64,000 nt of DNA. It comes from Patescibacteria group bacterium (GTDB lineage Bacteria; Patescibacteriota; Saccharimonadia; CAILAD01; JADZBC01). The first letter of the stretch is position 1; the number at the start of each line of letters is the position of its first letter. The stretch is from positions 18,345-82,344 of the forward strand of contig JBPOIL010000003.1 of the NCBI GenBank assembly GCA_052034495.1, written 5' to 3'. Under the pieces are notes generated by a model, which made no database searches, had not been told where the DNA came from, and saw nothing but the letters and a program-made list of their open reading frames with translations. The position numbers and the translations under genes were made by a program. Shown in pieces: positions 17,835 to 44,984 of the stretch.

Positions 17835-17949
17835 TTTGCCCCTCCCGGGCTCGTTGAATGGAACGACAATATTATGCATTGTTATATTCTATAAGTCAAT
17901 AGCCAACTCTACCCTGTCCCCAGGCACGAAACTAGGCTATACTAAGGTG

Positions 17950-18993
17950 ATGCAAAAAACTGAGCAAGGTCCACAAAAGGACCCTAATTTTAAGAAGCTG
18001 CCGATGACTGTGCTCACCGGCTTTTTAGGCGCGGGCAAAACCACGCTGCTCAACTACATCCTTACTAACAACCAAGGCCTTAACATCGGCGTGGTGGTAA
18101 ACGACTATGGCGACATTAACGTTGATTCCGACCTCATTGCCGACAAAACTGACGCTAAGCTGGAGCTCACCAACGGCTGCATTTGCTGCAGTTTAGAAAC
18201 GCTCGATTTGCAAGAAGCGATTGGTCAGTTTGCCTACCAAGGTAGCCCGATCGACTACATCATTATCGAAGCGAGTGGCTTAGCAGAGCCTAAGGACCTG
18301 GCCCTAACGCTCAAAGACACCATCGGCCAACGTGTGTACCTCGATAGCATCGTTACGGTGCTTGATGCCGAGAACTTAGAAAAGAACGCCCAAGAGCACG
18401 GTACGGCGAGCGAGCAGATCGAGTTCTGCGACTTTGTGATTATTAATAAGGTCGACTTGGTGCCAACAGCTAAGGTTAAGGACATCCGTTCGTTAATCGC
18501 CAGCATTAACCCTAAGGCCCGCATATTGGAAGCTACTAAGGGCGAAGTCGAGATCCACTTACTGCTCGACCAAGATGTATTTGCTAAGCGCGAGCCAAAG
18601 TCTGAAGATGACCACGAAGAGCACACAGATCACGCCGATCACGTGCATTCCCATTACCAAACGTTCAGTTTCACGAGCGACAAGCCACTCCACCCAATGA
18701 GGTTCCAAGAGTTTGTGAACAAGCAGATTCCAACGAGTATTTACCGCGCCAAAGGCTTCGTTGATTTGGGCACCAAGGGCCACGAGCGCAAATACATCTT
18801 CCAATTGGTTGGTACACGAGCCGAAATTACCTGGGGCAACTGGGGCGGCGACGCGCCACAAACACGCCTCGTATTCATTGGTCAGGATGCCGATCAAGCA
18901 AAGATCATGGACGCATTGCAGAAGTGCGTGGACGAAGCACCCGACGAGCCACTTGATGGCATCGAAGTTCAGCTGCCCAAGAAGGCCAGCTAA
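17950..18993 (+). CDS. COG0523-family GTPase / zinc metallochaperone (CobW/ZigA/YeiR-like)
   Basis: P-loop GFLGAGKTTLLN, CxCC metal motif (GCICCSL) and a His-rich linker DDHEEHTDHADHVHSH. The ATG at 17950 has the RBS AAGGTG; the track start at 17836 overlaps the islet. Confidence 0.8.
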   Translation: MQKTEQGPQKDPNFKKLPMTVLTGFLGAGKTTLLNYILTNNQGLNIGVVVNDYGDINVDSDLIADKTDAKLELTNGCICCSLETLDLQEAIGQFAYQGSPIDYIIIEASGLAEPKDLALTLKDTIGQRVYLDSIVTVLDAENLEKNAQEHGTASEQIEFCDFVIINKVDLVPTAKVKDIRSLIASINPKARILEATKGEVEIHLLLDQDVFAKREPKSEDDHEEHTDHADHVHSHYQTFSFTSDKPLHPMRFQEFVNKQIPTSIYRAKGFVDLGTKGHERKYIFQLVGTRAEITWGNWGGDAPQTRLVFIGQDADQAKIMDALQKCVDEAPDEPLDGIEVQLPKKAS

Positions 18994-19002
18994 GGTTAAT
19001 AT

Positions 19003-20664
19003 ATGTTATTAAGCCTCGACGTCGAATCCAAACACATGGGCAACAAGCAGTTGTTGGGCGAATGCAGCATTGCCGTTAATGAGCGCGAGCGCATTGCCCT
19101 CATCGGTCGCAATGGTGTTGGTAAGTCCACCCTATTCCACTTGCTCGACGAAAGCGACAACGAATTTATTGGCACCCGGAATGCCAAAAAGGGCCTGCGC
19201 CTCATCTCTACCCGCCAAGAGCACCACGACATCGATGGCGAATCAGCCGTATCATACATCCTCTCCGAGCTGCCGCACTATAGCGAGCTCAAGCACATTA
19301 TGGAAACTTACCCAGCCACCATGGGCGACGACATGGCCAAGATCGAAGAGTACTCCCATGCGCTCGAAAAGTTCGCCGAACTCAACTTTTATAGCGTCGA
19401 AGACAAAATCATTTCCGAACTCGAGCGTTACCAAATCTCTGCCGATCTAGCCAATGGCCCACTCGGGCACTTGTCCGGTGGCCAGAAGCGCTTTGTAGAG
19501 TTGGTTAAAATCACCGAGGCTGATGCCGACGTGGTGCTGATTGATGAGCCGACCAACCACATGGACTACGTGGCCAAAGAGCAGTTCATTCGCTGGCTCA
19601 AAAACTATGACCGTAGTGTAGTGCTTATCTCTCACGATCGCGACGTACTTAAGTATGTCGATAAAATCATCGAGCTTAAAGACAAGAAGCTCTTTACCTA
19701 CCCTGGCAACTACGATGCCTACTTGGCGCAGAACAGCACCTCCACCCTGACCGGCATTGATCAGTACGAGGTAGCTCAGCGCACCCTAGAGAAGCTGCAC
19801 GCCCAGATTGTTTCGGCCCGGGCTAAGAAGGCCTCGAGCTCAAAGAACCCCAACCCATTCGTTCCAATGGAACGCCGCCTTATGAAGCAGTACGCCGAGC
19901 TTAAGGCCAATGTAGAAAAGCCATCATTCTGGATCGATCAAGACTCGGTAAGTGATATGAGCGGTAAGCTAGCCGAAAAGTATGATCGCTATAAGACCAA
20001 GAATATTTCGCTCGAAAGCGGTAAGGCCGACGCCAAGCAGGCCGAACTAACGCGTTTGCTCGACGTCCAGAACGTTTCGCTCGGCTACAGCGACCCACTA
20101 TTTAAAGATATTACCTTTTTAATGGGCTCGGGCGAGCGTGTGCAGATCCGTGGCCGTAACGGAGCTGGTAAATCTACCCTGCTAAAAACCATTATTGCCA
20201 CTACCCGGGGCGAAAAGCTCCCCGCCACCAGTTACGACGGTTTTATTGAATCCGACCATCGCTTGCGCCTTGGCGTGTACGAGCAGGAGATCGAAGCCGA
20301 GTATATGGAGGTGCCGCTGGGCGATGCTGTACTGCAGGTATACCACAAGTTGGGCATCGAAATTAACCACGAAAAGGTCGCGCGGATACTAAGCCAATAC
20401 TTGTTCCACCCCACGGGCGATGCCCGGCTCATGATCAATCAGCTGTCTGGTGGGCAAAAAGCTCGCTTCCAGTTGATCCGCATGTTCGCGCACGAACCAA
20501 ACATATTGATCCTCGATGAGCCGACCAACCATTTAGATCTCCCTTCTATCGAAGAGCTCGAGAAGTACTTAGTTAATTATCACGGCGCTATTTTATACGT
20601 ATCGCACGATAGCTACTTTACAGACAAGCTCGGTGGCAAAACGATTCAAATCGGCCGCGACTAG
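19003..20664 (+). CDS. ABC-F family ATPase (two ABC domains, no TMD; EttA/Uup-like translation factor)
   Basis: Two Walker A sites (GRNGVGKST and GRNGAGKST) and signatures LSGGQKRF and LSGGQKAR across 553 aa. Confidence 0.85.
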   Translation: MLLSLDVESKHMGNKQLLGECSIAVNERERIALIGRNGVGKSTLFHLLDESDNEFIGTRNAKKGLRLISTRQEHHDIDGESAVSYILSELPHYSELKHIMETYPATMGDDMAKIEEYSHALEKFAELNFYSVEDKIISELERYQISADLANGPLGHLSGGQKRFVELVKITEADADVVLIDEPTNHMDYVAKEQFIRWLKNYDRSVVLISHDRDVLKYVDKIIELKDKKLFTYPGNYDAYLAQNSTSTLTGIDQYEVAQRTLEKLHAQIVSARAKKASSSKNPNPFVPMERRLMKQYAELKANVEKPSFWIDQDSVSDMSGKLAEKYDRYKTKNISLESGKADAKQAELTRLLDVQNVSLGYSDPLFKDITFLMGSGERVQIRGRNGAGKSTLLKTIIATTRGEKLPATSYDGFIESDHRLRLGVYEQEIEAEYMEVPLGDAVLQVYHKLGIEINHEKVARILSQYLFHPTGDARLMINQLSGGQKARFQLIRMFAHEPNILILDEPTNHLDLPSIEELEKYLVNYHGAILYVSHDSYFTDKLGGKTIQIGRD

Positions 20665-26230: not shown

Positions 26231-26665
26231 TCACGCCATGTACTCGGCGAGCACGCGCTCGTGCTCCCGGCGGTAGTACTCATCGCTGCCTGGGGCAACC
26301 ATGAGACTCCCGGGTGAACGCCAGATCTCCCTGGCGGTCAGGCCGATCACGATCGGAGATGCGAACCCTGCGTAGAAGCAGAGCGTGATCATCCAGCCGA
26401 AGGGCCAGACGTCACTCCGCATCTGCGCGAGCACCTGCTGGCACTCCTCCATCCCGAAGCGAACGACGGGGTTCAGGGTACCGATGGCGATGGCGACGGT
26501 GCCGATGGTCAGGTACGCCCAGCGCCAGATGTGGCGGGACTTGTTGCTGGCCAGGGCGCCGAGGATCATCCGGGCCCCGACGATCCCGACCGCGACTGCG
26601 GCGAGGAAGAGGGCGATGAACACGCCATCCTGGACCTTGCTGGAAACTTCTTGGACTGCGAGCAT
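26231..26665 (-). CDS. High-GC islet gene: 144-aa polytopic membrane protein
   Basis: ATG at 26663-26665 with the RBS GCAGGAGGAGCAGGA; about four hydrophobic helices; high GC3. Confidence 0.5.
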   Translation of the reverse strand: MLAVQEVSSKVQDGVFIALFLAAVAVGIVGARMILGALASNKSRHIWRWAYLTIGTVAIAIGTLNPVVRFGMEECQQVLAQMRSDVWPFGWMITLCFYAGFASPIVIGLTAREIWRSPGSLMVAPGSDEYYRREHERVLAEYMA

Positions 26666-26794
26666 TCCTGCTCCTCCTGCGTGTTGTGTGAGTGGGTCAA
26701 TGAACTCAGCACATATTAACATGCTTATGCTAAATTGTCAAGCCAATGATTGCTACATCTCTTTACCCTAAATTTTCGAGAATTGCCATGCAGT

Positions 26795-27543: not shown

Positions 27544-28737
27544 TTAAGTTTGCGAACTATCATTTAACTCACTGAACTTAGCGGCCATTGTGTCATTGTC
27601 TCGGGTGAGCTTCTTGACGGTTAGCTCGTCGGCTTTGTTATTCGCCAAGCGCAAGTTGTCTTCTGATCGCAGCAGGTTCTCTTTGGTCTTTTGGAGCTGC
27701 ACAATCGATTTGTCGATGCTCTCAATGGCGGTTTTGAACTTTTCTGAAGCCAAACGGTAGTTTCTGCCAAATGAATCGCGGAAGTCATTGAGTTGGGCTT
27801 CGAAGTTCGTTACGTCTATGTACTGCGCCTTTACGAGTGCGAGCTCGGACTTATACTGCAGCGAATTCAGCGCGGCGTTACGCAAGAGTGTAATCATCGG
27901 TATGAAGAACTGCGGGCGAATCACGTACATCTTGGGGTGCCGGTGCGAAACGTCTACAATTCCCGTGTTGTAGAGCTCGTTGTCGGCCTCGAGCAGCGAT
28001 ACAAGCACGGCGTACTCACAGCTCTTTTCATTGCGATCCTTATCGAGCTCCCGCAGGAAGTCCTCATTCTTCTTTTTAGTAGCTGTTTCGTCACTCTCGT
28101 TCTTCATCTCGAACATAATCGAGACTATCTCGTTGCCAGCATCATCCGTTTCGCGGTATATATAGTCACCCTTACTTCCGGTACTGGCGTCATTATCTTT
28201 TTCGAAGTAGGCGTTCGGGAATGCAGTTGCTCTGAGCTTATTAAATTCTGTCTCGCAGTGCTGCTCCAGTGTTTCGCCAACCATCTTGGTCGACAGTCGA
28301 GCCTTCATATCTTTATACTGGGCGATTGTCTCGTCTTTTTGCCTAAGTTCAGCCTCGTACTTATCTTTCATAGAGGCCTCTAGGAGTTGCTTCTCGGTGT
28401 CCTTCGAGCTCAGCTTGTGGACTAACTCATCGCGCTCTTTCTCTACTGTCTTTAGTGCCTGGGCGACAGCTAGCTGCTTGGATGTATCAGACAACTCCAG
28501 TTGGGCCTTCACTCGAGCAACTTCGGCGTCTCGCTTACTTATCTCTTCTTGCAGTTCGTTTTTAACCTTAGCTTCTGCGAGCTGCACGGCATTCACCTTT
28601 TCTTTTTCTAGCAGCTCCAGTCGTTCGTGAATCTCTTTTTCAAACTCACTGGTGCGGACTTGCTTTAGGATATCGGCATACCCTGCCTCATCAATAGTGA
28701 ATGACTTTTTACAATGCGGACATATAATTTCGTTCAT
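27544..28737 (-). CDS. Zinc-ribbon plus long coiled-coil protein (DUF2130-like architecture)
   Basis: N-terminal MNEIICPHCKKSFTIDEAGYADILKQVR zinc-ribbon-like opening followed by about 200 aa of heptad-rich E/K/L sequence. Confidence 0.5.
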   Translation of the reverse strand: MNEIICPHCKKSFTIDEAGYADILKQVRTSEFEKEIHERLELLEKEKVNAVQLAEAKVKNELQEEISKRDAEVARVKAQLELSDTSKQLAVAQALKTVEKERDELVHKLSSKDTEKQLLEASMKDKYEAELRQKDETIAQYKDMKARLSTKMVGETLEQHCETEFNKLRATAFPNAYFEKDNDASTGSKGDYIYRETDDAGNEIVSIMFEMKNESDETATKKKNEDFLRELDKDRNEKSCEYAVLVSLLEADNELYNTGIVDVSHRHPKMYVIRPQFFIPMITLLRNAALNSLQYKSELALVKAQYIDVTNFEAQLNDFRDSFGRNYRLASEKFKTAIESIDKSIVQLQKTKENLLRSEDNLRLANNKADELTVKKLTRDNDTMAAKFSELNDSSQT

Positions 28738-29227: not shown

Positions 29228-29839
29228 CTATGAGTGCCATGAGCTTGCGGCGTTCCTGCATAAAATGGTGAGGTTGTGTGATGACATGAATGTGGTTCCG
29301 CCGCGTTTTTTGTGCTCAGCGAGTAGGCCATAGAAAATCTCTTGCATCAGCGGGTCAAGGCCGCTGGTCGGTTCGTCTAGTATGAGGAGCTTTGGTTTGT
29401 GGGCTAGGGCGGCAATAATCCCGATCTTCTGCCTGTTTCCGCGCGAAAGGTTTTTGATCTTTGGCTTAAGGTCGGCCTGTAAGGTGTCGGCCAGGCGGTT
29501 TACCTCTGTCATGTCAGTTTCGCCCTGCAGGCGCATTATGTATTTGAGGTAGTTCCAGCCACTTAGCCCGGTATACATGGCCATGTCACCGGCTAGGTAG
29601 CCAATAGTTTTGTGGACGTCCACGTAGTGCTTTTCGCTGTCTTTGCCGAATACATGAATCCTGCCCGCGGTAGGACTAATGTGATTCAGGATAAGGCGGA
29701 TGGTCGTAGTTTTGCCCGCACCGTTTGGGCCCAGAAAGCCGAATATCTCGCCTTCTTTGACGTCAATGCTGACATTGTCGACCGCGGTCTTTTTGCCAAA
29801 CTTCTTACTAAGGCGGGAGATCTTGATGGCATTCTTCAT
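29228..29839 (-). CDS. ABC transporter ATP-binding protein, C-terminally truncated (possible gene remnant)
   Basis: Walker A GPNGAGKTT, signature LSRGNRQKI, Walker B LLILDEPT and an H-loop SSHN. The ORF stops about 20 aa after the H-loop with an atypical tail (ILCRNAASSWHS), and no permease gene is adjacent. Confidence 0.55.
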   Translation of the reverse strand: MKNAIKISRLSKKFGKKTAVDNVSIDVKEGEIFGFLGPNGAGKTTTIRLILNHISPTAGRIHVFGKDSEKHYVDVHKTIGYLAGDMAMYTGLSGWNYLKYIMRLQGETDMTEVNRLADTLQADLKPKIKNLSRGNRQKIGIIAALAHKPKLLILDEPTSGLDPLMQEIFYGLLAEHKKRGGTTFMSSHNLTILCRNAASSWHS

Positions 29840-31474: not shown

Positions 31475-31574
31475 GTTCTTGCCTGATTTGACCTAAGAGA
31501 GTATAAATACACACAACGGTTCGCCGTAGTTAGTGCACGTTTCCATTCGAATATTCTACCCAAGGAGGTCGGCC

Positions 31575-32255
31575 GTGGCTGACGATAGTTTTCCGCCTGA
31601 CCTGCTGCGAGATATCGAGGAGGTCTTTGCAAGTGCTGATCCAGACTTGGAGCTCGCGAGTAAGGCTTTCGAAAAGCTGCCGTTGCCCAAGATGGGGAGC
31701 CTCATAGAGCTGCCGAGTGATGAGTTCTCGCCCGCTAACATCCGAGGCCTCAACCGCAGAGAGATGCGATGTCTCAAGCGAGTCGACCGTAGGCTTGCTT
31801 TCGAGCAGGCTTTGGTCGATGCCGAAGCTGAGTGGGATGAGGCGAGCAGGATTCGTAGGGGGCTCAGAGTCTTTTCCGCCCTGTGCTTTGGGGCCTCGCT
31901 CTTCCTGTACTTCCTGGGTCTAGGTATAAGAGGCCAGGGGGCCGAGTACCAACCGGCTTCTGCTCATCTGCTGTGGATGTTCGTGTCGGGGACGTTTCTG
32001 TTTGCTATGTACGCAGAGGAGTTGATTTCCCGCACCCTGCGCTATGGCCGCGCCTACTGGGCGGTTGGCGGCTCGACGTCCTGGCTAGGCCGAACGTTCT
32101 TGAGGTTCAAGAACTGGCGCTGGCTGCACACTGTGTGCCACTGCAGGAAGTGCAGGCGGCTCCCGCGTACCCACCAGAGCTTTTGCCGTTGCTGGCATTG
32201 CAAGTTGGCTCGGCGCTGGACGTTCTGGCGTCGAGGCAAGCGCTACCGGCCCTAA
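31575..32255 (+). CDS. High-GC islet gene: 226-aa membrane protein with a basic Cys/His/Trp-rich C-terminal tail
   Basis: GTG at 31575-31577 with the RBS AAGGAGG six nt upstream; two or three TM helices (VFSALCFGASLFLYFLGLGI, LLWMFVSGTFLFAMYA); tail HTVCHCRKCRRLPRTHQSFCRCWHCK. The frame keeps GC3 at about 85% to its end, which supports the tail being real rather than a frameshift. Confidence 0.45.
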   Translation: MADDSFPPDLLRDIEEVFASADPDLELASKAFEKLPLPKMGSLIELPSDEFSPANIRGLNRREMRCLKRVDRRLAFEQALVDAEAEWDEASRIRRGLRVFSALCFGASLFLYFLGLGIRGQGAEYQPASAHLLWMFVSGTFLFAMYAEELISRTLRYGRAYWAVGGSTSWLGRTFLRFKNWRWLHTVCHCRKCRRLPRTHQSFCRCWHCKLARRWTFWRRGKRYRP

Positions 32256-32386
32256 TTAGGGTCATCCGCTCACTGCGGACGGAGATTCCGTCCTTGGTGG
32301 GCGGTTCTTCGTTTAGGTATTGATTTATAACGATAATTATAGTATTATAGCGAAAGTCCGCCGTCCGCAATCAAAGGAGCAACGGC

Positions 32387-32971
32387 ATGGCAAAGGAAAA
32401 GAAGAAGTCCAAGAAGTCCAAGAAGGGCAAGAGCAAGAAGGGTTCGGGCAAGCTGCCCAAGAAGAGCCCCAAGGTGACGAAGCTCAAGGCTCCGGACAAG
32501 AAGGGTCCTGACAAGAAGTCCAAAAAGGGCAAGAAGAAGGCCGCCGCCGAGGTGCCGACCGGAGACATCGACCTCTCCTCCGTGATGATCACGGAGCTGG
32601 TTCGGAATCGCATCTGCAGCGAGCTCAAGCTCACTCCCCAAGAGACTGGCTACATCACCAAGGTGATCACTTCGGTCTGGGTGTCTGTTGACATCGTCCA
32701 GCAGGAGCCGATCGGCAACAGCGACAGCCCGCTCATGCCCGCACGGACGGGAGAGAACCGGGCGGTCGACCTGGGGACGCTGGCCAAGGTCGTCTCGTTC
32801 CCGGAACTCCAGCGCGAGGTGCGAGGCGTCCTTCGCCAGGCGCGCCGGGCGTCCTTCGTTGGGCCCAAGGGTCTGGCCGTCCTCGAGCGCTTCGTGGACA
32901 AGGCCAAGAAGATCATCATCTACCAGAGCCCCCGTCCAGACCATGACGGAGATGGCGGCGGTTCCGAGTAG
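32387..32971 (+). CDS. High-GC islet gene: 194-aa protein with a histone-H1-like lysine-rich N-terminus and a globular C-terminal domain
   Basis: RBS AAAGGAG; the N-terminal ~55 aa are KKSKKSKKGKSKKG repeats, followed by a non-repetitive domain. Confidence 0.55.
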   Translation: MAKEKKKSKKSKKGKSKKGSGKLPKKSPKVTKLKAPDKKGPDKKSKKGKKKAAAEVPTGDIDLSSVMITELVRNRICSELKLTPQETGYITKVITSVWVSVDIVQQEPIGNSDSPLMPARTGENRAVDLGTLAKVVSFPELQREVRGVLRQARRASFVGPKGLAVLERFVDKAKKIIIYQSPRPDHDGDGGGSE

Positions 32972-32991
32972 CCAACGTCCGTCTGACCACC

Positions 32992-33040
32992 CCGCCTCAC
33001 GGCCGAGAGTCTCCTCTCCGCTGTGAGGCGGCTTTCGTAT
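32992..33040 (+). terminator. Intrinsic terminator (9-bp CCGCCTCAC/GTGAGGCGG stem followed by CTTTCGTAT)
   Basis: Located 20 nt after the stop of the 32387-32971 gene. Confidence 0.4.
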
Positions 33041-33055
33041 ATCGAAATAATTACA

Positions 33056-33113: not shown

Positions 33114-34007
33114 CTATTCACCTCTGCGGCAGGCCAGCATGTCCTGAATAATGGCGATGGCTTCGTGGTGGCGACGCCTGGCCATATTCCTACCCCAACC
33201 AAGCTCTCGCTCAATTGAGGCGAACTGCTTGCCCTCGAAGTAGTGCAGATCCAAGACCGCCCTTTGGTCCGGACTGAGCCACGCAGCGTCAAGCATGGAG
33301 CTAAGGTGAACGCTACTTGTCATGTCGGGCTCCAGGCCCAGCATGTCCCCAAGCTCAGTACTGCTATCCTCACCAAGCTCTTCGTTGAGTGACGTAGTGT
33401 TCCTCATGACTTGCTGCAGCTCTGCCACTTCGTCGACAGACCAGTCGAGACGATCTGCTATTTCGTCCGGCGTTGGCTCTCGCCCCAGCTTCATCATCAG
33501 CTCATGCGACACCGTTTGCATCGTCTTGATGTCGTTTACCACATGAATAGGTAAACGAATCAAACGAGCCTTGTTGGCTATGGCTCGTTGGACTGCTTGG
33601 CGAATCCACCATGTGGCGTAGGTGCTGAACTTAAAGCCCTTGCGCCAGTCGAACTTCTCAACCGCATGCATCATGCCTAGGTTGCCCTCTTGGATCAGGT
33701 CCATGAGCTCCAGGCCACGATTCGTGTACTTCTTGGCGATCGAGACCACCAAGCGCAAGTTCGCGTTTATGAACGTTCGTTCGGCTCGCTCGCCCCGGCG
33801 CACTAGGCGCTGGAGCTCGCGATAACGATTCGAGTTCTTGTGCGGTGGTTGCGAGGCAAGTTCAGCGGCAGCATTCCTGCCTTCTTCGATTACTTTTGCT
33901 AGCCGTATCTCATCCGCCTTGGTAAGCAACGGGTGTTGGCCAATCTCGGCGAGATATAGCCTCACCAGATCTTCTTCATTGCTGTCGCGTCGCCGATTAG
34001 TAGGCAT
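33114..34007 (-). CDS. RNA polymerase sigma-70 family factor (regions 1.2, 2, 3 and 4; RpoD-like, lacking region 1.1)
   Basis: Region 1.2 LVRLYLAEIGQHPLLTKADE, region 2 DLIQEGNLGMMHAVEKFDWRKGFKFSTYATWWIRQAVQRAIA, plus regions 3 and 4. GC is about 55%, somewhat above the backbone. Confidence 0.8.
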   Translation of the reverse strand: MPTNRRRDSNEEDLVRLYLAEIGQHPLLTKADEIRLAKVIEEGRNAAAELASQPPHKNSNRYRELQRLVRRGERAERTFINANLRLVVSIAKKYTNRGLELMDLIQEGNLGMMHAVEKFDWRKGFKFSTYATWWIRQAVQRAIANKARLIRLPIHVVNDIKTMQTVSHELMMKLGREPTPDEIADRLDWSVDEVAELQQVMRNTTSLNEELGEDSSTELGDMLGLEPDMTSSVHLSSMLDAAWLSPDQRAVLDLHYFEGKQFASIERELGWGRNMARRRHHEAIAIIQDMLACRRGE

Positions 34008-34186
34008 GATCTCACCTCGATTCGGTGTAGTAGGTGCGTGATACCTGGCGCGCGCCAGATATCGGCATACTATACCATATGAATCAGTGCTGCCAAAGCA
34101 TAAGTGCCTGTAATCAGTTATTGCGTGGTTGGGATATATGTGGTAAAGTGTGCTTCCTGTTCACCATCCGAACAAAGGCGAATACG

Positions 34187-34456
34187 TTGACTGAATATGG
34201 ATACCCGGAACGCTATACCCCATCGGACGTTTGGCCGAGCAAGCTCAGTATCGAAGAATGCGATGAGATCGTCGCAAAGGTCCTGAGAGACAACTACTAC
34301 TGTGGTCCAAGAGGCCAGCTCTTGGTCAAGATCGTCAACAAGCTGATGAGTCGACACCCTGGCGACCGCAAAGATGGCCTGGACGGCGTTGCGAGGTTCG
34401 AAGGCAAGCTTGCCCGCGAGGGCTACTTCGGCCCCGACCAGATTCCTCGTTCGTAG
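34187..34456 (+). CDS. High-GC islet gene: ~90-aa hypothetical protein
   Basis: TTG start at 34187 with AAAGG seven nt upstream; GC-rich codons begin here. The 5' part of the track ORF (from 34034) is low-GC and Cys-rich junk. Confidence 0.4.
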   Translation: MTEYGYPERYTPSDVWPSKLSIEECDEIVAKVLRDNYYCGPRGQLLVKIVNKLMSRHPGDRKDGLDGVARFEGKLAREGYFGPDQIPRS

Positions 34457-34480
34457 CGCGTCCAAACCGGTCGCTCCACC

Positions 34481-34530
34481 CCGCCCCGCGGTAGAGATTC
34501 GTCTCTCCTGCGGGGCGGTTCCCGTTATCG
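34481..34530 (+). terminator. Intrinsic terminator (CCGCCCCGC/GCGGGGCGG 9-bp stem then a T-rich tail)
   Basis: Located 25 nt after the stop at 34456. Confidence 0.4.
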
Positions 34531-34600
34531 TTCATTTACAAAGCTGTCTATTCCTGTTATTATGTATATCCATTTTAGTTCAGCCAAGGGGTATTTCAGT

Positions 34601-35011
34601 ATGAAAGTCAGGGTTACCACCTACGATCGTCGCGAGGGCGGCGGAGAGCTGATGCTCTTCTCCGAGGATGCACTGTTCGCCGACGCACCAGCTCAGGCAA
34701 CTTTCGGTAAGACCAGCTACGAGAACGCAGTTGGTCGTCGCCTCACTCGTTTGGGGTCGGCAACAGTCAACCACCTGTGCGCCGGACTCGATGGAGTTTC
34801 GGTGCACCTCATGGTCGGCGACAGCCGTATCCGCATCGTCGTACCAGCGGGAAGCAAGACAGCGAGTACTTACGACCGCGTGTGCAGTCGGATTCTCTCT
34901 CCACGGCGTGGCGAGCTCAGCCTGCCTCAAGCCCTCGAAAGAGACCTTGGAGAGCCGGTCGATGTCGAGCTGGCTGGCAACAAGACCGCTGGGGCAGTAC
35001 CGGTCAACTGA
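34601..35011 (+). CDS. High-GC islet gene: 136-aa hypothetical protein
   Basis: ATG at 34601 with the RBS AAGGGG nine nt upstream (MKVRVTTYDRREGGG...); high GC3; followed by a nested hairpin terminator at 35031-35080. Confidence 0.5.
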   Translation: MKVRVTTYDRREGGGELMLFSEDALFADAPAQATFGKTSYENAVGRRLTRLGSATVNHLCAGLDGVSVHLMVGDSRIRIVVPAGSKTASTYDRVCSRILSPRRGELSLPQALERDLGEPVDVELAGNKTAGAVPVN

Positions 35012-35030
35012 GCCACCCGCCGTGGTGGAA

Positions 35031-35080
35031 ACACCCGCTTGTCGGGGCGAATCCTCGCCCTAACGGGCGGGTTTTCGTTT
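35031..35080 (+). terminator. Nested GC-rich hairpin terminator (outer CCCGC/GCGGG, inner GGGCGA/TCGCCC, then TTTTCGTTTT)
   Basis: Lies between the stop of the 34601-35011 gene and the convergent metK stop at 35085. Confidence 0.45.
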
Positions 35081-35084
35081 TAAC

Positions 35085-36056
35085 TTATTTTTCCCAAGCA
35101 AACTCTTTGTGTCCGAAGTGTCCGTAGCGCGCCGTGGCTTCAAACTGCGGCTTCGTTAACTCAAGGACCTCAACAATGCCGCACGGCGACAGGTCGTATC
35201 CTACAATCTTTTCCTGAACGCCATCGATTAATACACTTGCTTCGAGGGGCTGATCGTGACCTATGGCGTATGCAAGCCTCGTAAATACCTCCTCGGCCCC
35301 GCGCGTACGTAAATAGTCGAGTGCAATCTTGCGTGCCATGTAGGCAGCCGAACGATCGACCTTACTTGCATCTTTGCCACTAAAGCAGCCACCGCCAATA
35401 GGAATACGCGGACCGTAGTTATCTACGACCAGCTTTCGGCCCGTAAGTCCGGTGTCAGCATCGAACCCGCCCTGCTGCCATTCGCCAGCTGGATTGGCAT
35501 GGATTTCAGGATTATCAATCGCATTCTTGTTGGTCAGCCAACTCGCGATAGAGGCTTTGAGTTCTTGAGTTTTTGAATTCTGAAAACTCGCCACTACGGC
35601 GATAATTTTGTCGTCCTGGAGGGTGACTTGAGTTTTGCCGTCATATGGCCATATGGCGTATAGGTACTGGTTGAGCTGGCGGCTCAACACAACCTCGAGC
35701 GGCAGGGCTTCGGGCGTCTCGGCGCAGGCATAGCCAATCATTATTCCCTGGTCTCCTGCTCCACCCGTATCAACGCACTGGGCAATTTCTGGGCTCTGGG
35801 CGACGATGTTCGTGGTGAGTGCAATGCCGCCTGCAATGCGCTTTGCAATTGGCACCACATCGACACTCGCCGAGCTGGTTACCTCGCCCATGATTACGAG
35901 CTGGCCGTGTCCACCGAGAGCCTCAACGGCGACGCGCGCCGTGGGGTCTTGAGCTAGGTAGGCATCCAGAATCGCGTCACTGATTTGGTCGCACAGTTTG
36001 TCGGGGTGTTTTGGGCTAACACTTTCGGCGGTTCGTAGGTTAGTTAGTTTGGTCAT
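35085..36056 (-). CDS. metK: S-adenosylmethionine synthetase
   Basis: The ATG at 36054-36056 follows AAAGGAG and eight nt (MTKLTNLRTAE...). Motif GGGCFSGKDASKVDRSAAYMARKIA matches MetK. The product is 323 aa, short for the family. Confidence 0.85.
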   Translation of the reverse strand: MTKLTNLRTAESVSPKHPDKLCDQISDAILDAYLAQDPTARVAVEALGGHGQLVIMGEVTSSASVDVVPIAKRIAGGIALTTNIVAQSPEIAQCVDTGGAGDQGIMIGYACAETPEALPLEVVLSRQLNQYLYAIWPYDGKTQVTLQDDKIIAVVASFQNSKTQELKASIASWLTNKNAIDNPEIHANPAGEWQQGGFDADTGLTGRKLVVDNYGPRIPIGGGCFSGKDASKVDRSAAYMARKIALDYLRTRGAEEVFTRLAYAIGHDQPLEASVLIDGVQEKIVGYDLSPCGIVEVLELTKPQFEATARYGHFGHKEFAWEK

Positions 36057-36119
36057 AAAAAATACTCCTTTCGTATCGTCCCCGCCACCGGCAGGAAAAA
36101 GGAGTTTAGCGCAAATGCA

Positions 36120-36226
36120 TACACTTATCTTTCCCACACTGGGCTAGAAGGGGCACCGTTCTGACTGTTCAGATGGTTGCCGGCAGGTCATAAAGCTAGA
36201 TCTCTCGCTGCACTCTTGATACTTGG
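36120..36226 (-). promoter_or_regulatory. SAM-I (S-box) riboswitch-like leader of metK
   Basis: The minus-strand leader reads ...AGUAUCAAGAG...CCUGCCGGCAACC...ACGGUGCC...GAAAGAUAAGU..., matching the S-box blocks CUUAUCAAGAG, CCCGGCAACC, GGUGCC and GAAAGAUGAG. Downstream, AAACUCCUUUUUCC can pair with the metK RBS AAAGGAG. Confidence 0.55.
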
Positions 36227-36341: not shown

Positions 36342-36698
36342 CTACGCCGTTCTGGTGAGCGGCTTGGGGAGCTGGCCCGAGTGCCCACGATCGCGCATGG
36401 TCTCGACCACGTTGGGCTGTTCGTAGACGTAGGGCATGACGTAGACCTTGAGGTGCAGCCTTGCGGTACCGCGGGGGCTGAGCTGGTTGGTCATCCCGGT
36501 CAGCGGAGCTTGGGCATCTTCGGCGAGAAGCTCACCGAAGAAGTGCTGCAAGGAGCGGACCTCCAGGTCCTTCAGGACCTTCATGGCTACGTCCGACGGA
36601 GGACGCTTGCTGTCGGGGTGATCCAGGTAGCTGCTCGCGATCTGGGCGATCAGTGGCGCGATCCCAAGGATCGCCGGTTCATCTGTGTACGTAGGCAT
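36342..36698 (-). CDS. High-GC islet gene: 118-aa hypothetical protein
   Basis: Minus-strand frame has GC3 of about 80%, whereas the overlapping + ORF 36330-36725 is Gly/Val/Arg-rich antisense-like sequence. A GC hairpin plus T-run follows on the minus strand at about 36285-36305. Confidence 0.45.
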   Translation of the reverse strand: MPTYTDEPAILGIAPLIAQIASSYLDHPDSKRPPSDVAMKVLKDLEVRSLQHFFGELLAEDAQAPLTGMTNQLSPRGTARLHLKVYVMPYVYEQPNVVETMRDRGHSGQLPKPLTRTA

Positions 36699-36851: not shown

Positions 36852-37301
36852 CTACTTCAGTACCAGTAGGACCGGTGGCTTGGACTCGAGTGCCAAGTCG
36901 GGAACGAGTGCCTGTAGATGCGTCCTGCCGTGCCGAACCACACGCTTGAAACCCTTGCTGGCAAAGAGCTGCTGATTGCACAGCCCATGCGCCGACTCTT
37001 TGATCGGGTTCGTGATGTTCGGCCTCATGAACACCTCGAAGATCTTCTCGGTGCGTGTTGCTTCAGCCTCATCAAGCATTCGCAAGCGTCCCATCCCGCA
37101 GTACAGAGGCTCCGAACGGGCATCGTGCACTACCTGGAGCAAGATTCGTACCACCAAGGTGGCATCGCGCCGACTGCACTTCACTTTTGCCTCGCGGCAC
37201 TCTCCTCGGATTGCCTTTGCAGCCTCCGGGAACAACTTGGGGTCGAATGTGCCGGTAGTCTCTCTGTATCTCTTCACCAAGATCTCCTCGGTCTCGCTCA
37301 C
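36852..37301 (-). CDS. High-GC islet gene: 149-aa hypothetical protein (GTG start)
   Basis: GTG at 37299-37301 (MSETEEILVKRY...); elevated GC3; the + strand ORFs 36918-37310 and 36976-37314 were rejected. Confidence 0.4.
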   Translation of the reverse strand: MSETEEILVKRYRETTGTFDPKLFPEAAKAIRGECREAKVKCSRRDATLVVRILLQVVHDARSEPLYCGMGRLRMLDEAEATRTEKIFEVFMRPNITNPIKESAHGLCNQQLFASKGFKRVVRHGRTHLQALVPDLALESKPPVLLVLK

Positions 37302-40107: not shown

Positions 40108-40524
40108 ATGACCATCACCGAACCGGACGTCGCAACCGCGGCGACCATGCCCACCCCGTACCCCGACACCATCAGCCCCCGACCCACCATCGACCAGATC
40201 CGCAGCGCGATCATGAAGCAGACCGGCTGCAGCAAGCGTCGGGCTCGTCGCTTCATCGCCTTCCTGCGCGACCAGATCTCCTGCGCACGCAGCGAGGATG
40301 GCTACGGGCCGGTCCACCTCACGCAGGAGGAGATCGACGAGTTCCACCCGATGCTCGAGCTGGTCATGCCCGACGACACGGCGTCCACGCCGGGTTCCGC
40401 TCACGACCTGATCGAGCGCGGCCTGCTCAGCGCTCACCGCGGCGAGCTGTCCATCACCCACACCAAGGGCGGGCCGACGGCCGAGGACTGCGTCACCGTC
40501 GTCGAGGTCCACAAGGTCGGCTGA
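40108..40524 (+). CDS. High-GC islet gene: 138-aa hypothetical protein
   Basis: RBS GGAGGTGG nine nt before the ATG; GC3 above 90%; followed by a strong terminator. The minus-strand ORF 39973-40590 is an Arg/Gly/Asp-rich antisense artefact. Confidence 0.5.
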   Translation: MTITEPDVATAATMPTPYPDTISPRPTIDQIRSAIMKQTGCSKRRARRFIAFLRDQISCARSEDGYGPVHLTQEEIDEFHPMLELVMPDDTASTPGSAHDLIERGLLSAHRGELSITHTKGGPTAEDCVTVVEVHKVG

Positions 40525-44858: not shown

Positions 44859-44984
44859 AGTCGGATTCGAACCGTATTATTATAACCTAATATTTCGACA
44901 ATTACAACTTAGTGTTGGGTTAAAACGAAAACCATCCCCCCGAAGGATGGATAATTTCCGTCCTCGGGAGGATGTTGGCCGGCC

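Follow-up and report, generated by a model that had tools for sequence, protein, structure and literature searches.

A syntenic gene pair of Candidatus Saccharibacteria encoding a predicted membrane protein with Cys/His knuckles and a protein with a histone H1-like lysine-rich tail

Bacterial proteins in which a lysine-rich segment resembling histone H1 is fused to a globular domain are known DNA binders. How DNA is organized in the Saccharibacteria and other ultra-small bacteria with reduced genomes is little known, and these organisms carry many lineage-specific genes with no assigned function. In DdbA of Streptomyces the H1-like domain is N-terminal and is reported to bind DNA (PMC3643593). 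Here we describe a gene pair with a comparable component in a 64,000-nucleotide stretch of DNA (the window; assembly GCA_052034495.1, contig JBPOIL010000003.1, positions 18,345 to 82,344 of the forward strand) from a Patescibacteria group bacterium of the GTDB lineage Saccharimonadia. Gene 1 encodes a predicted membrane protein with a Cys/His-rich basic tail, and gene 2 a basic protein that opens with a long lysine-rich segment. Judged by sequence comparison, the pair is a resident, syntenic chromosomal locus in a narrow Candidatus Saccharibacteria subclade, and its products are new, narrowly distributed families that resemble known kinds (H1-like tail, zinc knuckles) and are members of no known family. 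The picture that we favour, and hold tentatively, is that gene 1 encodes a membrane protein with zinc knuckles and that its partner, the gene 2 protein, is an H1-like binder of polyanions. The features of the pair are given below in window positions.

31562 to 31568, plus strand: ribosome binding site of gene 1, AAGGAGG, read from the sequence, 6 bases before the GTG start.
31575 to 32255, plus strand: gene 1, a predicted 226-aa membrane protein of an orphan family (open reading frame, public gene calls, 11 homologues).
31575 to 31859, plus strand: gene 1 N-terminal domain, predicted to be cytoplasmic, starting MADD..PDL (charge counts, alignment).
31866 to 32030, plus strand: predicted two-helix membrane hairpin of gene 1, with helix 1 at residues ∼98–119, helix 2 at ∼130–152 and a short loop (hydropathy, AlphaFold2).
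32127 to 32201, plus strand: two tandem Cys/His knuckles of gene 1, H185-x2-C-x-C-x2-C193 and H200-x3-C-x-C-x2-C209 (alignment).
32202 to 32252, plus strand: Arg/Trp-rich end of gene 1, KLARRWTFWRRGKRYRP (alignment, charge counts).
32266 to 32314, plus strand: T1, a compound hairpin (32266–32304) then TTCTTCGTTT, which we take to be an intrinsic terminator serving gene 1.
32320 to 32348, plus strand: promoter-like site of gene 2, TTGATT, 17 bases, TATTAT (consensus scan; conserved in six lineages).
32373 to 32379, plus strand: ribosome binding site of gene 2, AAAGGAG, read from the sequence, 7 bases before the ATG.
32387 to 32971, plus strand: gene 2, a 194-aa basic protein (pI 10.1) of an orphan family (open reading frame, ∼10 related clusters).
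32387 to 32551, plus strand: lysine-rich tail of gene 2, in which 26 of the 55 residues are Lys and the net charge is +22, with an embedded AKLKAPxKK-like motif.
32552 to 32932, plus strand: helical domain of gene 2, residues ∼56–182, with conserved SDSPL, SFxGP and several Arg (AlphaFold2).
32992 to 33042, plus strand: T2, a compound hairpin (32992–33031) then CTTTCGTATAT, read as the intrinsic terminator of gene 2.

Both genes, which appear on the plus strand in the list of open reading frames (ORFs) of the window, are real, and their frames are supported by the GC content of third codon positions (GC3) and by homologues. The longest ORF of gene 1 is 31533–32255. Its likely start is the GTG at 31575, because AAGGAGG is suitably spaced before it, public gene calls use the same start (giving a product of 226 aa) and every homologue in the alignment has MADD at this position. 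The GC3 of gene 1 is 0.71 overall and 0.82 across the tail (32040–32255), where the other two codon positions have values of 0.46 and 0.65; this pattern upholds the frame of the tail, and the 11 relatives of gene 1 keep the Cys/His pattern in the same frame. For gene 2 the GC3 is 0.85 and the ratio of AAG to AAA codons is 32:1, against 239:167 in eleven long genes of the window. Most window genes have a GC3 of 0.45–0.66, and total GC is 0.60 in 32001–33000 versus ∼0.50 elsewhere in the window. Differences between lineages are most frequent at codon position 3 and least frequent at position 2, and therefore fit coding sequence. An earlier note on this DNA, made from the sequence alone, had thus been right about the frame of the gene 1 tail, about the lysine-rich ORF being coding (it has relatives, a codon-position pattern and high GC3) and about the strong ribosome binding sites on both genes.

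An exhaustive profile search of 1.84 billion representative proteins gave 12 hits to gene 2, of which 10 were real relatives (clusters); a word-indexed search gave five relatives. The relatives are 175–214 aa long and consist of a basic N-terminal extension of ∼45–85 residues, Lys-rich throughout in most and only at its start in two, followed by the same C-terminal domain of ∼125 residues. The gene 2 protein itself occurs in identical form on four public metagenome contigs. Two relatives are in named genomes, both uncultured Candidatus Saccharibacteria, the profile search itself giving no organism names. Because of this, the actinobacterial setting in which the earlier note had placed the pair was wrong.

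The locus was compared in the window and in lineages L004, L011, L012, L013, L014/L015, L097, L098, L099 and L100. Gene 1 lies directly upstream of gene 2 in all of these except L098, that is, in 9 of the 10, and in L013 the pair is kept whilst the upstream neighbourhood is different. This adjacency makes a functional link between the two genes plausible. The pair usually sits between a K+ channel gene and metK, with the same synteny in several genomes. A mobile or foreign island would be expected to show patchy presence, a variable position, mobility genes or phage or plasmid relatives, and a composition drifting towards that of the host; here the synteny is conserved and GC3 stays high across divergent lineages. 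IMG/VR viral contigs and GenBank phage records yielded no relative, and the PHROG families gave no match, in searches that did not extend to plasmids; a phage origin was rejected on the viral and phage results.

The earlier note took the pair for a foreign islet. Horizontal acquisition, for example from a high-GC actinobacterial host, would account for the locally raised GC and for the GC3 of gene 2, and there are insertions near the locus: two lineages have a sigma-factor gene there, and L097 has an IS1595 transposase with a Replic_Relax gene. Saccharibacteria live on Actinobacteria, whose proteins often bear Lys-rich tails. However, the position is conserved across several related genomes, the ∼10 related clusters share one architecture, and the high GC3 of gene 2 has been kept across lineages whose third codon positions differ at 27–66% of sites, as it would not be in a passively decaying import. 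The high GC3 thus looks maintained rather than left over from a recent import. Together with the lack of viral or phage relatives, this makes a horizontally acquired islet very unlikely, although an ancient transfer of the pair into the ancestor of the clade may have taken place. The transposase (IS1595 family) and Replic_Relax genes of L097, at 465–2490, lie a few genes upstream of the pair, and suggest that the region tolerates insertions.

The two-part structure proposed for the gene 2 protein, a Lys-rich opening of ∼55 residues and a separate domain, was borne out by AlphaFold2 modelling. Residues 3–56 have a predicted local distance difference test score (pLDDT) below 50 and are predicted to be disordered. 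The segment therefore has what defines an H1-like segment, being long, of low complexity, Lys-rich, strongly positive and predicted to be disordered. Its net charge ranges from +17 to +25 across lineages, and the AKLKAPxKK-like motif recurs family-wide, so that the tail is not purely low-complexity; these comparisons show that the family as a whole has conserved its Lys-rich segment. Residues ∼66–180 are modelled as helices at a pLDDT of 77–90, with a conserved, low-confidence loop at 107–124 that contains SDSPLMPAR. A Foldseek search with the model found nothing better than E = 0.67 in the PDB or BFVD. No Pfam or NCBIfam family was found for gene 2 at E up to 0.1, although the HMMER composition filter may hide weak low-complexity matches, and the protein has no hydrophobic stretch fit for a signal peptide or membrane segment. 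Neither its sequence nor its fold connects it with Hc1, AlgP, HU or another known protein. An HU/IHF-like fold, which the sequence ‘PARTGENR’ recalls by eye from the HU arm, was rejected since the model is nearly all helical, with no Pfam Bac_DNA_binding or PDB match. Paralogy with the small high-GC3 ORFs at 34034–34456, 36852–37301 and 40108–40524 was also rejected, as a profile search of the window ORFs returned gene 2 alone. In L098, a tail-less ORF of 112 aa between gene 2 and gene 4 (1036–1374) is a weak paralogue of the helical domain; it scored 15.7 bits, with E = 1e-5 against a set of 23 sequences.

By analogy with the H1-like tails of DdbA, HupB, HupS, Hc1 and AlgP, DNA is the most likely ligand of gene 2. 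A Lys tail of this kind would be a generic polyanion binder, and gene 2 might instead bind another polyanion such as polyphosphate, with gene 1 anchoring that material at the membrane. A precedent of this kind is AlgP, an H1-like protein that is reported to be linked to polyphosphate granules and their spacing (PMC9239181). However, gene 2 has no homology to AlgP, and there is no polyphosphate kinase, CHAD-domain or phasin-like gene among the annotated neighbours; polyphosphate is to our minds a rather improbable ligand.

The alignment of gene 1 contains 12 sequences with overall identities of 23–41%. Its N-terminal 95 residues carry a net charge of −6 in the window copy, which has an extra basic insert within this domain, and of −13 to −20 in most relatives. 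The earlier note counted two to three membrane helices. Hydropathy is strong for the first helix only (peak start at residues 96–102), whilst AlphaFold2, run with an 11-sequence alignment, gives helices at 61–119 and 129–163 with a pLDDT of 80–91. We read the number of membrane helices as two, the second resting on the AlphaFold2 model, and do not retain the third. Arg residues flank both helices on their N- and C-terminal sides and, by the positive-inside rule, both ends of the protein should therefore be cytoplasmic. Gene 1 would then be an inner-membrane protein with both termini in the cytoplasm.

The Cys/His-rich tail is present and conserved, and its 26-mer HTVCHCRKCRRLPRTHQSFCRCWHCK (residues 185–210) has 6 Cys and 4 His, rather than the 7 Cys and 3 His counted earlier. 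H200, C204, C206, C209, R213, W215, W218 and R223 are invariant in the 12 sequences, and H185, C188, C190, C193 and Y224 are conserved in at least 90% of them. The family pattern is H-x2-C-x-C-x2-C, H-x3-C-x-C-x2-C, then (K/R)L(K/A)RRWxxW(R/K)Rx2RY, so that each unit places four conserved Cys/His ligands within ∼10 residues, as in small zinc modules. P0025 and the L100 copy wholly lack the first unit and keep the second H-x3-C-x-C-x2-C, and therefore suggest independent modular units of four ligands each. The last 66 residues of the window copy have a net charge of +18 and 7 Trp, and the tail has a charge of +15 to +20 across lineages. The conservation of Cys and His across such divergent homologues fits a metal site. 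Each knuckle probably holds one metal ion, for which zinc is the default guess, and the Cys3-His unit could instead be the ligand set of an Fe-S cluster. The tail matched no Pfam zinc-finger model and gave no PDB sequence match and no fold match. The CobW/COG0523 family includes zinc chaperones, and a gene of this type lies ∼13 kb from the pair in the window (17836–18993, plus strand) and ∼3.5 kb from it in L100 (1–691); no evidence was found linking it to the gene 1 tail.

Both proteins evolve fast. Amino-acid identities between the window and L004, L100, L097 and L011 are 29–35% for gene 1 and 37–62% for gene 2, far below those of metK (81–86%) and the K+ channel (66–84%). A further sequence, L003, comes from one near-identical strain (L003 1–385 versus window 32038–32420). 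In it gene 2 is identical at every nucleotide and the flanks are identical, and ∼25 differences fall within window ∼32180–32370 (∼190 bases), a stretch that takes in the 3′ end of gene 1, the loop of T1 and the spacer of the promoter-like site. It is a variable spot or else the trace of local recombination.

Such divergence might reflect an arms race, with the pair acting as a conflict or host-interface module in which gene 1 is holin-like or membrane-active and gene 2 is its cationic partner, an effector or an immunity protein. The low identities and the clustering of the L003 differences at the gene 1 end and intergenic region would suit this, two membrane helices followed by a highly charged C-terminal tail are the layout of class II holins, and Arg/Trp-rich peptides are often membrane-active. 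However, PHROGs and PADLOC gave no lysin, toxin or defence-system match, viral contigs and phage records contained no relatives, the pair keeps a stable place in the chromosome, gene 2 lacks any hydrophobic signal-peptide or membrane stretch, and gene 1, with its 226 aa and long N-terminal domain, would be a large holin. We give this explanation little credence.

The most conserved parts of the locus are its non-coding elements. Mean pairwise nucleotide identity over 7 lineages is 0.84 for T1, 0.80 for T2 and 0.72 for the promoter-like site, versus 0.40–0.54 for coding segments. The folding energy of T1 is −28.6 kcal/mol (z-score −4.0) and that of T2 is −33.1 kcal/mol (z-score −5.7). Among the 16 consensus pairs of T1 there are G-U changes, which are strand-specific, and a single compensatory change; T2 has 15 pairs, two of them with compensatory changes. 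The maintenance of pairing through G-U and a few compensatory changes on the sense strand therefore points to RNA structure. A covariance model of T2 found it in 9 of the 9 searched loci that contain the gene 2 3′ end (64–79 bits), and matched T1 weakly. T1 is missing in L098, where gene 1 is also absent, and the −10 element TAGTATTAT of the promoter-like site is present in L098 as well. A conserved hairpin in the 5′ untranslated region, around the start codon, was considered and rejected because its support was weak and inconsistent (z-scores +0.6 to −2.6).

T1 and T2 each consist of a stable GC-rich hairpin and a T-rich tract downstream of a sense-strand stop, as intrinsic terminators do, and the simplest reading is that they are strong intrinsic terminators, as predicted from sequence, of the type used by this lineage. 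That style is a hairpin then TTTTCGTTT. The interrupted T tract (T/C)TTTCGTTT is common to hairpins at 44917–44956 (minus strand) in the window and 19179–19221 (minus strand) in L004, and to all hairpins of the cluster formed by the pair and two orphan genes downstream, genes 3 and 4. Tails of the YTTTCGTTT type were also found after unrelated hairpins. The idea that T1 and T2 are special regulatory elements or protein-binding sites was downgraded, since genes 3 and 4 are also followed by related hairpins and unrelated hairpins too bear this T-rich tail. Rfam gave no family match for the hairpins. Their sequence conservation appears to exceed what a terminator role accounts for. Two wider searches were discarded: an 18-base pattern for further copies of T1 gave 81 hits in the metagenome collection, which were chance matches without the rest of the element, and GTATKATWGCR, considered as a promoter motif shared by a regulon, was no commoner than chance in the window.

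The high conservation of T1 and T2 and their strand-specific variation raise another explanation, in which gene 2 is an abundant basic RNA or ribosome binder, possibly acting on its own flanking hairpins, and the Arg/Trp-rich knuckle tail of gene 1 would also bind RNA. Basic aromatic tails beside Cys-rich segments bind RNA hairpins in HIV Tat and in the nucleocapsid proteins of retroviruses. Against this, hairpins of the same kind after genes 3 and 4 and similar tails elsewhere make T1 and T2 look like ordinary lineage terminators, both hairpins are conserved in L099, where gene 1 has no knuckles, T2 is conserved in L098, where gene 1 is absent, and no RNA-binding domain or Rfam match was detected. 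We therefore regard RNA as an unlikely target.

In 8 of 9 lineages gene 2 combines a GC3 of 0.79–0.89 with the nearly exclusive use of AAG, while neighbouring housekeeping genes have a GC3 of 0.46–0.61. Translational selection on a highly expressed gene would be the obvious cause of this bias. The promoter-like site, the strong ribosome binding site, the hairpins of about −30 kcal/mol on both sides and the GC3/AAG bias would together suggest high expression of gene 2.

The arrangement that we infer, for the topology of gene 1, metal binding, polyanion binding, abundance and protein–protein contact alike, is as follows. Gene 1 would present two parts to the cytoplasm: its N-terminal domain, which is acidic, and its strongly basic C-terminal tail, which carries two His-Cys3 knuckles, thought of as binding zinc or possibly an Fe-S cluster, and then an Arg/Trp-rich stretch. 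Gene 2 would be an abundant cytoplasmic protein whose disordered Lys-rich tail binds a polyanion, most likely DNA, and whose helical domain supplies specificity or a partner contact. Gene 1 may then hold or regulate gene 2, with its bound nucleic acid, at the membrane, as the complementary charges of the two proteins suggest contact. This contact could be made by attraction of the Lys tail to the acidic N-terminal domain, by the knuckles and the Arg/Trp tail, or by both.

Several observations weigh against this arrangement and keep it tentative. Neither protein is tied by homology or fold to a characterized DNA-, RNA- or metal-binding family; Pfam, PHROGs, NCBIfam, PADLOC and the PDB gave no sequence match for gene 1 or for gene 2. 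Lys-rich tails also bind RNA, polyphosphate and membranes. AlphaFold2 models the Cys/His tail at low confidence (pLDDT 45–70). The Cys motif of gene 1 is lost in L099 and, in the short contig of L098, gene 2 lies behind a different membrane protein, so gene 2 has no strict need of the knuckles. High expression is read from sequence signals; the window has no ribosomal protein or EF-Tu gene as a reference for codon bias, and the bias of gene 2 may have another cause because nearby orphan genes also have high GC3. Lastly, genes 1 and 2 are predicted to be transcribed separately. As to the suggestion of the earlier note that they form a module, their adjacency in 9 of the 10 lineages makes a functional link plausible, but they do not look like an operon, since gene 1 is followed by a terminator-like hairpin and gene 2 is preceded by a promoter-like site of its own.

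If gene 2 is indeed an abundant DNA binder held at the membrane by gene 1, it would be a new kind of bacterial chromatin component. Otherwise, the locus still shows clearly how orphan proteins can evolve fast between promoter and terminator sequences that are themselves strongly conserved. In either case it yields two compact protein families without detectable relatives outside a narrow set, each with a clear testable feature.

Downstream of the pair are two further orphan genes.

34034 to 34456, plus strand: gene 3, an orphan (BLASTP against the neighbours in L004, L100 and L012, 40–53% identity).
34601 to 35011, plus strand: gene 4, an orphan of ∼136 aa starting MKVRVTTYD, with homologues downstream of gene 2 in relatives.

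Gene 3 is found in L004, L100 and L012, and its true start is probably later in the ORF because the homologues have ∼80 aa. Homologues of gene 4 are present in L004, L100, L098, L099, L012 and L011, with a 66-aa remnant in L097. By the covariance model, each of these genes is followed by a two-tier hairpin related to T2, within 34475–34533 for gene 3 (45.8 bits) and within 35029–35086 for gene 4. As judged from these matches, genes 1–4 are a small four-gene orphan cluster in which each gene has its own terminator-like hairpin. A more ambitious version of our favoured picture makes gene 2 a major nucleoid protein of this Saccharibacteria subclade, with an H1-like tail and a new helical fold, and gene 1 its metal- or redox-sensitive membrane partner, tying or releasing the nucleoid, the two forming with genes 3 and 4 a chromatin-organizing cluster. 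We consider this extension doubtful.

Between genes 2 and 3, a gene of the sigma-70 family (33114–34007, minus strand) encodes a protein of 297 aa with regions 1.2 to 4. It is also present in L097 (5705–6607), is absent at this position in L004, L011 and L100, and does not appear in the available sequence of L012, L098 and L099. Its best matches are RpoD and SigA/SigB-type models, not the extracytoplasmic function (ECF) type, and part of it matches the PADLOC MzaA model via shared sigma regions. The fact that gene 2 is closely followed by this gene, both in the window and in L097, and the conserved His and Cys of a membrane protein bring to mind a zinc-binding anti-sigma (ZAS-like) role for gene 1. 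The distribution largely refutes this, as the lineages in which the sigma gene is absent or not seen all keep gene 2. The H-x2/3-C-x-C-x2-C motif of gene 1 is C-terminal and is not the H-x3-C-x2-C of an N-terminal anti-sigma domain, no Pfam anti-sigma or zf-HC2 match was found, and the sigma factor, with regions 1.2 to 4, is RpoD/SigA/SigB-like and not ECF. We see next to no chance that gene 1 is an anti-sigma factor.

Other features were noted nearby. The metK ORF is 35085–36137 (probable coding region 35085–36056), and directly upstream of it is an S-adenosylmethionine (SAM) riboswitch at 36122–36225 on the minus strand (Rfam RF00162, 50.7 bits versus a threshold of 44.4). Small orphan ORFs with a GC3 of 0.72–0.91 and no family match are located at 26231–26722, 36342–36698 and 36852–37301 (minus strand) and at 40108–40524 (plus strand). 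For two of them, L004 or L100 has a homologue in the corresponding syntenic position, with a GC3 of 0.81 and 0.83 in the L100 copies, and high-GC3, lineage-specific small genes look like a class of their own in this ∼50% GC genome. The ABC (ATP-binding cassette) transporter ATPase ORF at 29228–29839 (minus strand) has 203 aa versus 296–297 aa in L004, L012, L014 and L100. The ABC-2 permease gene that follows this ATPase in relatives was not found in the window, where a DUF2130 gene (27544–28737) is nearby instead; the short ORF may be a truncation or rearrangement.

Set against known systems, T1 and T2 are like intrinsic terminators in having GC-rich hairpins and a T-rich tract directly after a stop codon, but they are long and two-tier, their T tract is interrupted (TTCTTCGTTT, CTTTCGT) and they are unusually conserved compared with the genes that precede them. 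Gene 1 shares with ZAS anti-sigma factors (RsrA, RslA, ChrR) its conserved His and Cys, the membrane anchor found in some of them and, in the window, a nearby sigma gene; it differs in motif, position and spacing, in having the sigma gene in 2 lineages only and in matching none of their domains. With class II holins it shares two predicted membrane helices, a predicted topology in which both termini face inward, and a C-terminal tail that is basic and highly charged, but it is 226 aa long, has an acidic N-terminal domain of ∼95 residues and is without a neighbouring lysin, phage context or PHROG match. Its compact tandem four-ligand Cys/His units, flanked by Arg, Lys and Trp, recall retroviral CCHC knuckles and the Cys- and Arg-rich regions of HIV Tat. 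The spacing is H-x2/3-C-x-C-x2-C in gene 1 versus C-x2-C-x4-H-x4-C in the retroviral knuckles, and the gene 1 units are at the predicted cytoplasmic end of a membrane protein and match no Pfam zinc finger; we take this comparison with nucleocapsid and Tat as a lead and not as a test.

Gene 2 is unlike the HU/IHF (DNABII) proteins in being nearly all helical in the model, with no beta-ribbon-arm domain and no Pfam or PDB match. It also has no homology to the H1-like bacterial proteins (DdbA, HupB/MDP1, HupS, AlgP and chlamydial Hc1/Hc2), with no Pfam Hc1, HC2 or HU match and a helical domain unmatched in the PDB or BFVD. The likeness to these proteins is in architecture, a long, predicted disordered Lys-rich segment joined to a folded domain, and in the composition of the segment, which has Ala, Pro, Ser and Gly together with KAPxKK and SPK-type motifs. 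In HupB/MDP1 and HupS an HU domain is followed by a C-terminal Lys-rich tail, whereas in DdbA, which also has a DksA-like domain, the tail is N-terminal (PMC3643593), as it is in gene 2.

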